Assembly: GCA_005191425.1 (NCBI GenBank)
Contig: SUPR01000011.1
Coordinates: 1 to 32,000, forward strand
DNA: 32,000 bases
From: Candidatus Helarchaeota ASGARD archaeon Hel_GB_B
GTDB lineage: Archaea; Asgardarchaeota; Lokiarchaeia; Helarchaeales; HEL-GB-B
Reading direction: 5' to 3'
This document shows positions 6,235 to 16,110 of the stretch, piece by piece (the first letter of the stretch is position 1; every line of letters begins with the position of its first letter). The notes under the pieces were generated by a model. The model did no database searches, had not been told where the DNA came from, and was given only the letters and a program-made list of their open reading frames with translations. The translations under genes and the position numbers were made by a program.

Positions 6235-6633
6235 TTAAATGTTAAAATCTGTAATATCTGACATTGATTCAATTATTTTAATCATTTCAGTTGTAGCCGG
6301 CAGATATTTCATTAATTTTGGTAATGGACCCTTTACAATAATTAATTTTTTTTGCACTGCGTCCATAAAATTTAGTTCTCCTTTAATAACGCGTATCCAT
6401 ACATCTTTTGTACCTTCCAATGTAAATTCTGCATCTTCATTTAAGCCCTCGTCCAAATCTTCTGCTCTCCCATTATTAGACCTCCAATGAAATGAGATTC
6501 CAGCATCAGGTGCATTTAAATTGAAACTGGTATTCAATCCTTCTGCATATTCAAGAAAATCCTCATTTGTATTACACCGGTTCGCAAATTCTTTTGCCCA
6601 TTCTATAGACCCTAATTTTAATTTTTCAGACAT
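6235..6633 (-). CDS. SCP2 sterol/lipid-carrier domain protein
   Basis: EWAKEFANRCN...AEFTLEGTKDVWIRVIKGELNFMDAVQKKLIIVKG matches the SCP2 pattern; SD GAGGT upstream. Confidence 0.85.
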   Translation of the reverse strand: MSEKLKLGSIEWAKEFANRCNTNEDFLEYAEGLNTSFNLNAPDAGISFHWRSNNGRAEDLDEGLNEDAEFTLEGTKDVWIRVIKGELNFMDAVQKKLIIVKGPLPKLMKYLPATTEMIKIIESMSDITDFNI

Positions 6634-11913: not shown

Positions 11914-11948
11914 GAGAAAATTTATAATAAACATATGTTTAAACATAT
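11914..11948 (+). promoter_or_regulatory. BRE/TATA promoter and palindromic operator of vapBC
   Basis: GAGAAAA + TTTATAAT (11914-11928) about 25-30 nt before ATG 11953; perfect palindromes TAAACATATGTTTA (11928-11941) and ATATGTTTAAACATAT (11933-11948). Confidence 0.65.
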
Positions 11949-11952
11949 ATAT

Positions 11953-12168
11953 ATGACTACCAAAACAATTACTATTAAGAAAGAAGTATATGACTTGTTA
12001 AACAGTATTAAGAAAGAGGACGAAAGTTTTAGTGATTTATTGGAGCGATTAGCAAAAAGGAACAAATCTTTAATAATTTTAAAAAAATTGAAAGGTACAA
12101 TTGATTTAGGAGATTCACAAGAATTAATAAATGAAATAAAATCTAAGCGAAATGATTGGAGATCATAA
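11953..12168 (+). CDS. vapB: VapB-type antitoxin (archaeal VAPB_antitox family)
   Basis: MTTKTITIKKEVYDLLNSIKKEDESFSDLLERL pattern; stop TAA overlaps the toxin ATG (TAATG). Confidence 0.88.
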   Translation: MTTKTITIKKEVYDLLNSIKKEDESFSDLLERLAKRNKSLIILKKLKGTIDLGDSQELINEIKSKRNDWRS

Positions 12169-12563
12169 TGATATTATTAGATTCTGATGTTCTCATAGAA
12201 ATATTAAACAAGAATTCAAGAATAAAAGACCTATTAATTGCAAAAATCGAAAAAGACGGAGATCAAGTGGCAACAACTGCTATTAATTTTCAAGAAATAC
12301 TATATGGTATTTTAAAAAGGAAAAATATAACTGAATTAAATAAAAATCATTTAATCTATTCATTTGATGTAATTCCTTTTACTAAAAGGGATGCAGAAAT
12401 AGCAGCGAGAGTCGAATTTATTTTAGAGAAATCTGGTAAAAAGAAACCGAAAGGTGATATTTTAATAGCTTCGATTGCAATCAGAACTGGGAGTAAATTA
12501 TTTACTCTTAATAAAAAACATTTTAAGGATATCCCAGAATTGAACTTATTTAATAAATTTTAA
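12168..12563 (+). CDS. vapC: VapC PIN-domain ribonuclease toxin
   Basis: ILLDSDVLI, FQEI, GDILIASIA, FTLNKKHF. Confidence 0.93.
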   Translation: MILLDSDVLIEILNKNSRIKDLLIAKIEKDGDQVATTAINFQEILYGILKRKNITELNKNHLIYSFDVIPFTKRDAEIAARVEFILEKSGKKKPKGDILIASIAIRTGSKLFTLNKKHFKDIPELNLFNKF

Positions 12564-13024
12564 ATTTTCTTTACATTAATTGAGATAATTAAAAATTATG
12601 CTATACAATAAAATAAAAGAATTAAACTTGATGAAAGTTTTTATAGAAAGAGTTTCTCTCAAGAACTTGGAAAATTTATTATATATAGAGATTATTCAGA
12701 AGAAATATCTTATTTTACCAGAAGATTGAAAAATTCAAAATTTGTAAATAATTTTTAATTTTTATTATTCTTACATTTTTATTAAATATATTAACATCCT
12801 CATTTTTTGGAGATATACCGCTAAAAAAATTGACAGAAAGATATATTTTCTAAAAAATAGAATTAACATTTACATATTTTTGTCGAAAAGTGGAATTTGA
12901 AAAATCTCCTTTTTATTAATTAAAGTATTAATTAAATATTAGTTAAAGAACAATTTTAAATAAAAATTGAAATTTAATTTCTAGGTTAAAAAATTTTAAG
13001 AAAATAAATAATGGGTGATGTCAG

Positions 13025-15322
13025 ATCGTTCAATCTTTAAATGGGATATGGAAAATCCAAACAGACGAATCCGAAATCGGTGTTGAACAAGAATGGTGGT
13101 GGACTGGTTATAATGACAATGATTGGTCTACAATACAAGTACCAGGACATTGGCAAGACCAGAATTTTCCAGATTATAATGGTGTCGTTTGGTATAGGTT
13201 ATTATTTGACCTTGACGACTCCTTTAAAAACGAATATGGCCCAAGAACATTATTAAGGTTTGATGGTGTTTTTTATTACTGTCAAATTTGGCTTAATAAT
13301 GAATATTTAGGGGAACATGAGGGTTATTTTGATTCTTTTGAGTTTGATGTTTCAGATTTACTTGATATTAATAATAACCTCCTTTGTATTAAAGTCGTTT
13401 GTTATGATGAACCAAATTTAAATAAGAAGAGACAAATAACTGGTGTCTTCTCTCACTGGGATGCATCTGATCCTAATTTTAACCCTGGTGGAATCTGGAA
13501 TAATGTGTCCTTAATAAAAAAACCAGTATTATATCTTAAAGAATTATCAATCAGGACTAAAATAATTGATTTAGAATCACAAACAGGAAAAATCCTTTTA
13601 AAATTTAATGTAGATTCGTTAATCACCTCTGACATCAAATTGAATTTTGTTATTAAACCAAAGAATTTTGAGGGTGAAATCCTGAACGACACTCATTTAA
13701 TGAGTGTTTCACCTGGAAATAATTTAGTTGAAAAGGAAATCACTATATATAACGCAAAATTCTGGTGGACTCATGATCATGGTTATCCTTTTCTATACGA
13801 CCTTGATATAATTGCCAATTTTAATGGAAGGGACATTGATATACTGAACACATTCTTCGGAATTAAAGAAATTAAATTAATTAGAAATAATGGCTGGCAA
13901 GTTTTTTTAAATAATAAGCGAATTTTCATTAAGGGCTCAAATTATGCTCCTCAAAAACATAGAATCGCAAAATCAACAAGAGAAGACTATGAACAAGATG
14001 TCGATTTAATGGTCAACGCAAATTTTAATATGGTCCGAGTTCATGCCCATATCGATAGAAATGAATTACATGAAATAGCCAGTGAAAAAGGAATTTTAAT
14101 CTGGCAAGATTTCCCGCTTCAATGGTATTATAATAAAACGGTCATTAAATCCGCAAAAGACCAAACTAAACGTATTGTTAATCAATTGAAGAATTATCCT
14201 TCACAGGGTATTTGGTGCTGTCATAATGAGCCTTTCAAAATACCTACTAAAAATGAAATTATAAAACTCCTTTTTTTAATAATCTGCTCAATATTTTCTT
14301 ATATTGGCTTTAATTTTCTCTTTAATTTATATCTATCACTTCCAATAACAATTTCAAAAATTTATTCTATAATTATTATTTTAACTATTTTTATTGGTAT
14401 TTCTTTAATTTTCGATCTAATTCCAACAGTTCTATTTTATAATTGGAATATTAATACACTTGATAAAAAGATCGCCGACCTTATTTCTAAACTTGATCCT
14501 GACCACCCAATTTTAAAAGCGAGTGGTCTTCTTGGTAGGACTGATTTACATTGGTATGATGGATGGTACTTCAACCCTGGAAAATATTGGAAGGCTAATA
14601 AATTCTCTAAGAAATTTCTAAAATGTTTTGCACCATTTGTAACTGAATATGGTGCCCAAAGTTTTCCAAATGTAGAATCACTCGAAAAATTTAAAATTAA
14701 TTTAAAATGGCCCTTTAATGAGGAAACATGGCTAAATTTAAAAAAGAACTTTAGATGTCAATCAAATATCGTAAAAAAAATTTTTAAAATAAATTCATTC
14801 AAAACTTTAGATGATTTTATTCATGCCACGCAACAATATCAATCCTCTTTACTAAAATTTCATAACGAATTATGGCGAAAACTTAGATACAACCCCACAG
14901 GCGGTGCAATTTGCTTTTTATTTAATGACTGTTCCCCTCTTATTACTTGGTCGGTCATAGACTATTTTAGAAAACCCAAATTAGCCTACGAATCTGTTTC
15001 TCTATCTTTCGAACCTTTATATGCACTTTTGTCCAAATGGCCTCGAAAATTCAAGAAAAATTCTCTTTTTAAAAACTCTATTCTATTAATAAATGATTAC
15101 TTGCATGATGTTCATGATATTAATATTAAACTTGTTGTAAAATCTCCCACTAATACTATTCTTGAAAATAATTATGATTGTAATATTAAAGCTGATTCTA
15201 TTATTCAGATTGACCAACTTAAATTTATTATTCCTAACGAAATCGGTGAATATTCTCTTGATATCTATTTATCGTCTGAAATTAATTCTATTTTAAACTC
15301 ATATAAATTTATTGTAAATTAA
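13025..15322 (+). CDS. Glycoside hydrolase family 2 (beta-mannosidase-like) with internal TM hairpin; non-canonical or mutated start
   Basis: Frame open from 13019 to 15322. Upstream part reads QSLNGIWK...VPGHW...GVVWYR...LRFDGVFY...EHEGYF (GH2 sugar-binding domain). Catalytic motifs WCCHNEP (acid/base) and FVTEYGAQSFP (nucleophile). Confidence 0.85.
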   Translation: MVQSLNGIWKIQTDESEIGVEQEWWWTGYNDNDWSTIQVPGHWQDQNFPDYNGVVWYRLLFDLDDSFKNEYGPRTLLRFDGVFYYCQIWLNNEYLGEHEGYFDSFEFDVSDLLDINNNLLCIKVVCYDEPNLNKKRQITGVFSHWDASDPNFNPGGIWNNVSLIKKPVLYLKELSIRTKIIDLESQTGKILLKFNVDSLITSDIKLNFVIKPKNFEGEILNDTHLMSVSPGNNLVEKEITIYNAKFWWTHDHGYPFLYDLDIIANFNGRDIDILNTFFGIKEIKLIRNNGWQVFLNNKRIFIKGSNYAPQKHRIAKSTREDYEQDVDLMVNANFNMVRVHAHIDRNELHEIASEKGILIWQDFPLQWYYNKTVIKSAKDQTKRIVNQLKNYPSQGIWCCHNEPFKIPTKNEIIKLLFLIICSIFSYIGFNFLFNLYLSLPITISKIYSIIIILTIFIGISLIFDLIPTVLFYNWNINTLDKKIADLISKLDPDHPILKASGLLGRTDLHWYDGWYFNPGKYWKANKFSKKFLKCFAPFVTEYGAQSFPNVESLEKFKINLKWPFNEETWLNLKKNFRCQSNIVKKIFKINSFKTLDDFIHATQQYQSSLLKFHNELWRKLRYNPTGGAICFLFNDCSPLITWSVIDYFRKPKLAYESVSLSFEPLYALLSKWPRKFKKNSLFKNSILLINDYLHDVHDINIKLVVKSPTNTILENNYDCNIKADSIIQIDQLKFIIPNEIGEYSLDIYLSSEINSILNSYKFIVN

Positions 15323-15435
15323 AATATCTTAAATAAAAAAAATTTCAATTTAAATCATTGGAATCTGATATACAGGGTTTATTCATTTTCCCATGCTAAA
15401 GGTAGGAAATTAAATTTCGTATCTATTCTATACGA

Positions 15436-15549: not shown

Positions 15550-16110
15550 ATTTATCTCATTAAAAATAAATACAAGTCCTTAATGCCGGCAATTAAAAAT
15601 GAACGAATAAAACAACAAATACTATCGTTCCACCAGAATAAAAGTAAACAATGTATTCAATATCGTTTTTACCCATCGAGAAAAGACAGTAGGGGTTATG
15701 AGTTCAATGTTTTCTTTGTGAAGAATGAATATGCATGGACAAATCTCTCGAAAACTCCCCAGACTGAGAAAGATATTCTCGAATTATACCATGCATATGC
15801 TACCAATAAAGTGATAAGAAACCGCACTAATCATAATTTGAAAAAAATAGCAGCCCAATACAAGGACAGATGGGGAGTAGAGACCGCATTCAAAATGATT
15901 AATTTCTTCCAGATAAGAACTTCGTCCAGTATATTCATTGTAAGACTATTTTGTTACTTATTTTCTATGGTCATTTATAATTTATGGATATTATATAATC
16001 TAATTTATAAGTGCTCTCAAGAAAATAGATATATACTCCCATCATTTCAGCTGAAATTGTATATTTTAGTAAAATCTCTTCAATATTGGATTCAAATAAT
16101 TATGGTATAA
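15550..16110 (+). pseudogene. DDE transposase fragment
   Basis: YKDRWGVETAFK (Y-R-E-K-type motif) and IRTSS...VRLFCYLFSMVIYNLW; the N-terminal region carrying the DD residues is missing; in-frame TGA at 15547. Confidence 0.8.

Follow-up and report, generated by a model that had tools for sequence, protein, structure and literature searches.

The stretch of DNA considered here (the window) comprises positions 1 to 32,000 of contig SUPR01000011.1 from the Asgard archaeon Candidatus Helarchaeota archaeon Hel_GB_B, whose assembly (GCA_005191425.1) totals 3.5 Mb in 182 contigs and is 94% complete. Its plus strand carries a gene for a glycoside hydrolase of family 2 (GH2) in which two long hydrophobic helices, folded back on each other as a hairpin, are inserted into loop 4 of the catalytic barrel. 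Coordinates are those of the 32,000-nucleotide window, plus strand, unless another locus is named; residues of the GH2 protein are counted from position 13019. The hairpin GH2 is a conserved, real variant within a known enzyme family, and the proposal that the hairpin acts as a membrane anchor appears well supported by its sequence.

The GH2 gene and its catalytic residues

The gene lies in a frame that runs from stop to stop between 13019 and 15322 and encodes 767 amino acids without interruption. No ATG, GTG or TTG occurs in this frame ahead of 13505, and neither of the two ATGs near the start (13011 and 13018) is in frame. The public gene call (P0002, 605 residues) begins at GTG 13505 and is truncated; the actual protein is about 160 residues longer at its N-terminus, and the part that was lost includes the sugar-binding domain. 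Translation probably starts at ATC 13025, which comes five bases after a GGTGAT; the orthologue P0003 has a TTG start at the equivalent position. A strain about 97% identical to the window gene is represented on contigs from three other metagenomes, all from hydrothermal vents, and in one of these samples a single contig covers the whole gene. From 12957 to 15334 the three samples are free of insertions and deletions, both samples that reach the start region show it unchanged, and the strain variant 13507 G>A abolishes the GTG used by gene callers. Because the start region is constant in independent strains and GTG 13505 is lost there, the canonical start codon is truly missing. Among the first 36 strain differences listed, 17 are synonymous and 19 non-synonymous, which points to purifying selection on the gene. 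One orthologue (L010, at G124 C27:25076-27328), in a related genome, has a single in-frame TGA in an otherwise intact frame of 764 codons; sequencing may have erred there, the codon may be recoded, or the gene may have become a pseudogene recently.

The protein has the three domain types of the family, and all three Pfam matches lie above their cut-offs. The match to the barrel domain PF02836 (27.5 bits) begins at residue 294 and breaks off at residue 406, where the insert lies. The hallmarks of GH2 are an NE motif in loop 4, a glutamate nucleophile in loop 7 and an arginine in strand 2 (PMC12243196). All of them are present: the acid/base Glu404 (codon 14228-14230) lies in WCCHNEP, residues 399-405, and the nucleophile Glu543 (codon 14645-14647) in FVTEYG, residues 540-545. 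In an alignment of 112 sequences R340, N403, E404 and E543 are invariant, as are H402 and G545; N477 and D482, which follow the insert, are nearly so, and the loop-6 Tyr and loop-8 Trp are conserved. The assignment to GH2 with both catalytic glutamates, made in an earlier sequence-only reading, is thus upheld by Pfam and by the invariant residues. With a 112-sequence alignment as input, the AlphaFold2 (AF2) model reaches a predicted local distance difference test score (pLDDT) of 95.4 and a predicted template modelling score (pTM) of 0.93. We regard the protein as a retaining GH2 exo-beta-glycosidase with its catalytic residues intact, the activity being predicted.

The folds closest to the AF2 model are beta-mannosidases, which align over 650-678 of the 767 residues at Z 34-39, followed by the exo-glucosaminidase CsxA (Z 33) and beta-glucuronidases (about Z 31). 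The solved beta-mannosidases XacMan2A (6byc), mouse MANBA (6ddt), DtMan (5n6u), BtMan2A (2vjx) and CapGH2b (9nfe) have the same multi-domain layout and, at an identity of just 17-22%, share with the window protein the NE motif of the acid/base and the nucleophilic Glu of loop 7. They are soluble or secreted, and none has a hairpin in loop 4. The fold is thus closest to that of beta-mannosidases, but loop 2 has a His in place of the Trp of mannosidases. According to the 2025 subdivision of GH2, this His, near the C2 and C3 hydroxyls of the sugar, gives way to Trp in the mannosidase subfamilies GH2_13 (exo) and GH2_17 (endo), to Glu in GH2_16 and to Gly in GH2_14, and only the multifunctional GH2_15 retains it (PMC12243196). 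In the family of the window protein the segment reads R340-V-H342-A-H344, both histidines are nearly invariant, and H342 aligns with the Trp of RVWGG in DtMan, so that the loop-2 Trp of the mannosidase subfamilies is absent and the sugar specificity may differ from theirs. The label "beta-mannosidase" is consequently doubtful, the loop alignment amounting to strong doubt and not to proof. No NCBIfam equivalog scores above its cut-off, NCBIfam and the ESM Atlas offer merely generic GH2 or beta-mannosidase names, and the most suitable description would seem to be a beta-mannosidase-like GH2 of unassigned specificity.

The loop-4 insert and its distribution

Twelve residues (405-416) separate Glu404 from a hydrophobic stretch that covers residues 417-474 (14267-14440). 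The sequence-only reading had placed a two-helix hydrophobic hairpin here, right after the acid/base Glu; the AF2 helices and their low hydrophobic moments agree with it, and a frame check finds its coordinates for WCCHNEP, Glu404, 14267-14440 and FVTEYG to be exact. In the model the helices span residues 411-438 (28 residues) and 443-464 (22 residues) with a turn of four residues between them, and the block-mean pLDDT of the insert is 92-96 as far as residue 460, then 79 over residues 461-470. The 19-residue Kyte-Doolittle maxima of 2.26 (417-435) and 2.70 (450-468) are the sole windows above 1.6 in the protein. The two cores have mean Eisenberg hydrophobicities of 0.82 and 0.90 with hydrophobic moments of 0.12 and 0.20 and show no polar face; for the insert, moments of 0.02-0.2 go with mean hydrophobicities of 0.75-0.9. 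Residues 411-470 (60 residues) have a mean hydropathy of 1.6 and carry five charges, whereas the rest of the protein averages -0.40 and is 23% charged. The insert thus comprises two uniformly hydrophobic, non-amphipathic segments, predicted to be helical and joined by a short turn, as in a two-pass hairpin.

The borders of the insert are sharp in alignments, with HNEPF(K)xP(T)K ahead of it and YNWNK(D/N)VLD, a segment common to all family members, after it. Among solved structures the Dictyoglomus beta-mannosidase 5n6u is the closest (E 7.8e-34); in it, chain residues 85-447 align with query residues 60-403 and chain residues 472-656 with query residues 483-667, so that about 80 query residues (404-482) face 25. 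Close orthologues match the insert at 32-40% identity and the remainder of the protein at 59-64%; for the next clade the figures are 16-27% and 43-46%. Despite this roughly twofold faster divergence the mean hydropathy of the insert is held at 1.3-1.7 in homologues, with 0-6 charges per 45-60 residues. Divergence with hydrophobicity retained is what lipid-facing helices would be expected to show, and it is unlike a specific protein interface. The DNA of the hairpin has a GC content of 17% in the window, and the hairpin is kept in homologue loci of 28-51% GC; its retention in loci of 38-51% GC argues against an artefact of AT-richness. Scanning the insert alone (P0001:400-485 and P0025:410-600, E up to 1) gave no Pfam match, and the whole protein matches no Pfam family besides the GH2 domains and has no detectable homology to CAAD/CURT1 (PF14159).

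The distance between the two catalytic glutamates, measured on an alignment of 120 homologues, divides the family. About 80 soluble homologues have 96-103 residues from Glu to Glu and not one hydrophobic window; all those that carry a name are bacterial. Archaeal homologues have 129-141, 156-173 or 201-236 residues and two to four hydrophobic windows, which are their sole hydrophobic segments. The trimmed tree set has 33 insert-bearing rows and the larger FastTree set 46; every one of them, at identities as low as 36%, has the insert at this loop, and the clade that bears it spans several families and two or more classes. In a six-frame search of 400 genomes from the phylum, 24 proved to carry the family and 16 of those 24 to carry insert-bearing copies, comprising all sampled members of families f1, f2, f22 and f25 and part of f3, f5 and f6. 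Some genomes hold two insert-bearing paralogues, and the window genome also holds a soluble one (contig C27, 778 residues, motifs HCE and NEFG) with no hydrophobic segment. The best homologues bear the names of Helarchaeota, Lokiarchaeota or Promethearchaeota proteins from metagenome-assembled genomes (MAGs). An exhaustive HMMER search against 1.84 billion cluster representatives added only a few insert-bearing ones among the best 150, together with further soluble representatives, among them the short-looped P0142 at 43% identity. One insert-bearing protein, P0054, is labelled bacterial (a Deferrimicrobium MAG), is 45% identical to the query and belongs to a cluster with a 756-residue member; it resembles the Helarchaeota-type proteins, and its label is probably a binning error.

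Soluble GH2 proteins of 700-750 residues form a sister clade whose named members are all bacterial, for example those from Kallotenue papyrolyticum (P0081) and from Chloroflexota and Deltaproteobacteria MAGs. These proteins are 31-37% identical to the window protein over the full length, share with it HNE, TE[YF]G and YNWN(K/R)DVLD, and have ESM Atlas models that superpose at a TM-score of 0.84-0.85, but they lack a hydrophobic window and sit on a separate branch of the tree. Searches by names and NCBIfam gave no biochemically characterised member of this soluble clade. Alignment columns with fewer than 70% of rows filled were dropped before the trees were built, which removed the insert. Maximum likelihood trees place 32-33 insert-bearing rows on one side of a branch (SH-aLRT 86) and 28-34 soluble rows on the other (97), and a larger FastTree run gives the same picture, with the deepest split unresolved. 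One change of state suffices, as the soluble archaeal paralogues are the outgroup. The simplest history would be that an Asgard ancestor gained the insert once, that duplication came next and that two subclades went on to have three or four helices; by these alignments and trees the insert is ancient and selected.

Probable membrane anchoring, orientation and alternatives

No N-terminal hydrophobic segment or signal peptide is found in the window protein or its orthologues, in line with what had been read from the sequence, and the starts of the orthologues agree. Those with ordinary start codons begin 1-7 residues before the conserved LNGxWK strand, which leaves no space for a signal peptide. 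Among 25 two-helix homologues the mean number of Lys and Arg residues is 1.2 before helix 1, 2.2 after helix 2 and 0.6 in the connecting loop; the corresponding counts in the window protein are 3, 1 and 1. This is the pattern of the positive-inside rule, with a bias that is modest and with helix boundaries drawn by a simple heuristic. Folding of the barrel needs both flanks of the hairpin on one side of the membrane, and this requirement, the lack of a signal peptide and the positive charges of the flanks together suggest that the globular domains lie in the cytoplasm. Membrane insertion and this orientation are both inferred, the cytoplasmic orientation being likely.

In the GH-A architecture loop 4 follows strand 4, whose C-terminal end bears the acid/base Glu, and so belongs to the catalytic face. 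The linkers on either side of the hairpin are short, with about six residues between Glu404 and helix 1 (which starts seven residues after Glu404) and 5-10 between the end of helix 2 and N477/D482, and helix 2 leads nearly straight into the conserved YNWN. The bilayer surface would on this account be very close to the pocket, in support of the geometry proposed in the sequence-only reading. We picture barrel loop 4 of a GH2 in the ancestor of one archaeal clade growing by about 40-60 residues, past the acid/base Glu and ahead of helix alpha-4. The added segment would have formed two long hydrophobic helices that insert as a hairpin into the cytoplasmic membrane; with all globular domains cytoplasmic, the enzyme would be pinned active site down to the inner membrane face, its catalytic pocket within a few residues of the bilayer surface. 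That the protein is such a cytoplasm-facing GH2, anchored by its loop-4 hairpin with the pocket held at the bilayer, is the reading we favour and consider probable.

The closest functional analogue is found in cyanobacteria, where the CAAD domain, an insert of two transmembrane helices, anchors otherwise soluble aminoacyl-tRNA synthetases (ValRS, IleRS, LeuRS, GluRS and others) (PMC4893482). CAAD is homologous to CURT1, includes a coiled coil, has been acquired repeatedly and sits opposite the substrate site, and its removal leaves catalysis unchanged (PMC4893482). Both systems place an internal two-helix anchor in a normally soluble cytoplasmic enzyme of a restricted lineage; the GH2 insert differs in having no Pfam family, a single origin and a position at the catalytic loop.

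The same analogy feeds the strongest alternative, that the hairpin is a mere tether which keeps the enzyme at the membrane, for example near sugar importers or a membrane partner, that its substrates are soluble oligosaccharides and that the closeness of pocket and bilayer is irrelevant. The CAAD synthetases use their two-helix insert purely for localisation (PMC4893482), and the poor sequence conservation of the GH2 insert fits a simple anchor. Among close relatives the GH2 gene comes after an ABC-2 transporter pair, and in a hairpin-bearing sister clade all five loci (L038, L045, L010, L011 and L012) have a gene for a four-transmembrane protein 11 nucleotides downstream of it. The encoded protein has 129 residues, four hydrophobic helices and no Pfam family, its copies are 44-56% identical, and the GH2 insert has no similarity to it; it is a candidate membrane partner and gives a weak hint of a membrane setting. 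The position of the insert speaks the other way, in that the hairpin enters at the loop of the catalytic face right after the acid/base Glu, with short linkers, whereas CAAD lies opposite the substrate, and an anchor at one terminus would be the simpler route to a tether. The exact site has been kept through duplications and across classes, which suggests that position matters. We hold the tether to be a possible, if doubtful, account.

Could the helices instead lie outside the membrane, either packed as a hydrophobic core where the subunits of a soluble oligomer meet or closed as a lid on the active site? GH2 enzymes are commonly oligomeric, and AF2 is confident in the hairpin in a model that contains no membrane. 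Against this, the insert carries 0-6 charges over its 45-60 residues and is barely amphipathic, its low conservation is unlike that of a specific packing interface, and both the number of helices (two to four) and the lengths of the loops differ between clades, so that we consider soluble packing unlikely.

An enzyme held by the same hairpin and facing outwards, acting on surface or environmental glycans, would agree with the general habit of GH2, most subfamilies of which are mainly secreted (PMC12243196), and other GH2 representatives do have N-terminal hydrophobic segments. Neither such a segment nor a signal peptide is found in this protein or its orthologues, and the charge bias places the flanks inside. 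We know of no route, Sec/YidC N-tail translocation included, that exports a folded N-terminal region of 410 residues ahead of the first helix, and the outward orientation is accordingly rated as rather improbable. Least plausible, to the point of being very improbable, is an insert missing from the mature protein (an artefact, pseudogene remnant, intein or intervening sequence removed from the RNA): the absent canonical start codon and the low GC content of the hairpin DNA would fit, but in every homologue, over 28-51% GC, the insert continues the reading frame without a stop, selection acts on its hydrophobicity, it is far shorter at about 58 residues than known inteins and shows no intein-type domain when scanned alone, contigs from other samples run through it with no skipped form, and the start region is identical in independent strains.

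Several observations weigh against the membrane-anchored, bilayer-facing enzyme that we favour. Eight loci were compared, and none has a conserved operon for glycolipids, dolichol, carbohydrates or glycosylation around the GH2 gene; the lack of glycolipid and dolichol genes nearby speaks for a tether. The four-transmembrane protein is absent from the window genome in a search with a query from the sister clade. A gene for an SCP2 lipid-transfer protein lies 0.5-7 kb from the hairpin GH2 in four lineages, but such genomes have 9-18 SCP2 copies, the f22 and f25 genomes have none, and the association was spotted post hoc; SCP2 proximity is a lead and not a finding, and a weak hint of a lipid setting. 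The proteins P0030-P0033, from another class, have three hydrophobic windows by a stricter count, and the AF2 model for their clade has a pLDDT of 42-60 in the second half of the insert, which leaves the number of crossings ambiguous. Finally, it is from hydropathy scales and the secondary structure in AF2 models that segments are called transmembrane.

As to purpose, we infer that a bilayer-facing pocket would serve to present the active site to membrane-borne beta-glycosides, such as glycolipid head groups and polyprenyl-linked glycans, beyond mere localisation. More specifically, and more tentatively, the Asgard GH2 clade may hydrolyse or transglycosylate lipid-linked beta-glycosides at the cytoplasmic leaflet, for which glycosyl-archaeol, head groups of glycerol dialkyl glycerol tetraethers and polyprenyl- or dolichyl-(pyro)phosphate glycans are candidates. 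A lipid-linked substrate is a reasonable idea, and a putative one. GBA2, the non-lysosomal glucosylceramidase of family GH116, is a beta-glycosidase that acts on a glycolipid at the cytosolic face of a membrane. In this it resembles our working model; it belongs to another family and fold, has no transmembrane hairpin in its catalytic domain and is not homologous.

The locus and its wider meaning

The nearest relative shares with the window the upstream gene for a PCC-domain protein and those for the ABC-2 ATPase and permease, and synteny is limited to this relative; in other clades the neighbours of the hairpin GH2 are unrelated. Between the ABC-2 genes and the GH2 gene the window has a VapB/VapC (PIN) pair (11935-12563), where the nearest relative (L037) has only 183 bases, and a DDE transposase remnant follows the GH2 gene (15583-16110). 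The GH2 locus has been a target of mobile insertions. Elsewhere the window encodes a Ras-family GTPase.

In the hairpin-bearing sister clade the pair of GH2 and four-transmembrane genes is followed by genes for GlpA-like DAO/Fer2_BFD and FAD-oxidoreductase proteins (L038:10671-13777 and L045:9725-12506), with DUF1667 in L038; PEP-utilizer genes lie ahead of the pair, joined in L038 by a PPDK_N gene. These neighbours may link the pair to glycerol-phosphate metabolism.

Table 1. Positions of the hairpin GH2 gene, its parts and the associated genes (window coordinates unless a locus is given).
Feature	Residues	Coordinates	Strand	Basis or remark
Shine-Dalgarno-like GGTGAT		13014..13019	+	Direct reading; 5 nucleotides before ATC 13025; same in the ~97%-identical strains
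GH2 gene		13025..15322	+	Stop 15320-15322; PF02837, PF00703, PF02836; AF2 pLDDT 95.4, pTM 0.93
N-terminal sugar-binding jelly-roll domain	5-169	13031..13525	+	PF02837, E 4.3e-21, 76 bits; absent from P0002
Immunoglobulin-like beta-sandwich	172-282	13532..13864	+	PF00703, E 7.3e-07, 30.4 bits
(beta/alpha)8 barrel, first half, strands 1-4, to NE motif		13898..14230	+	PF02836 profile positions 7-137 of 302
Asn403-Glu404 (predicted acid/base)	403-404	14225-14230	+	Aligns with acid/base region of DtMan, PDB 5n6u
Predicted hairpin helix 1	411-438, core 417-435	14249..14332	+	AF2; Kyte-Doolittle 2.26; Eisenberg 0.82, moment 0.12
Tight turn LSLP	439-442	14333..14344	+	DSSP on AF2 model; small polar residues and Lys447 nearby
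Predicted hairpin helix 2	443-468, core 450-468	14345..14422	+	AF2 443-464; Kyte-Doolittle 2.70; moment 0.20
Barrel return, PT motif and YNWN	469-478	14423..14452	+	Alignment; into helix alpha-4; common to soluble homologues
Glu543 (predicted nucleophile), TEYG motif	543	14645..14647	+	E543 and G545 invariant; aligns with DtMan nucleophile region
C-terminal beta-sandwich	667-767	15017..15319	+	All-beta in AF2 model; aligns with beta-mannosidase C-terminal domains, over model residues 1-767
Four-transmembrane neighbour genes		L038:10264-10653; L045:9270-9659		11 nucleotides downstream of hairpin GH2
SCP2 genes		window 6235-6633; L040:7178-7597; L043:12339-12710; G125 C11:12602-12856

Two further kinds of GH2 protein with hydrophobic segments were observed. 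Contig C104 of the window genome (G000; L005:835-2676, minus strand) encodes a second GH2, of the beta-glucuronidase/galactosidase type, in a frame of 614 residues with no signal peptide; its C-terminus is the hydrophobic stretch FTFISRLAIPFGFFFTFVFKIINIVNIL after a basic cluster, which resembles a C-terminal tail anchor. P0206, P0240, P0259 and P0265 are GH2 proteins of 1800-2069 residues that combine an N-terminal hydrophobic segment, a GH2 module and about eight C-terminal transmembrane segments, a different membrane-bound architecture that is apparently likewise unstudied.

Membrane-bound glycoside hydrolases are usually held by a terminal helix or a lipid anchor. Among open-access papers and preprints we found no account of a glycoside hydrolase whose catalytic domain contains a transmembrane hairpin and no relevant paper on an Asgard GH2 or mannosidase, in keeping with the earlier impression that the architecture had not been described. 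Membranes go unmentioned in the survey of GH2 domain architecture, and proteins with transmembrane domains were removed from the analysis of secretion signals in the survey of GH2 subfamilies (PMC12243196).

Glycoside hydrolases are among the best-catalogued enzymes, and a transmembrane hairpin in the catalytic loop that Asgard lineages have long kept suggests that this glycosidase works at the membrane interface, on glycans borne by the membrane. The family offers a natural example of a soluble TIM-barrel enzyme that would have become a membrane enzyme by insertion into a single loop and, if the reading is correct, a previously unseen way of making a TIM-barrel glycosidase interfacial. To our knowledge, very little is known about the turnover of glycolipids and lipid-linked glycans in the archaeal relatives of eukaryotes; should the substrates prove to be lipid-linked, the hairpin GH2 would be to prokaryotes what GBA2 and other cytosol-facing glycolipid glycosidases are elsewhere.

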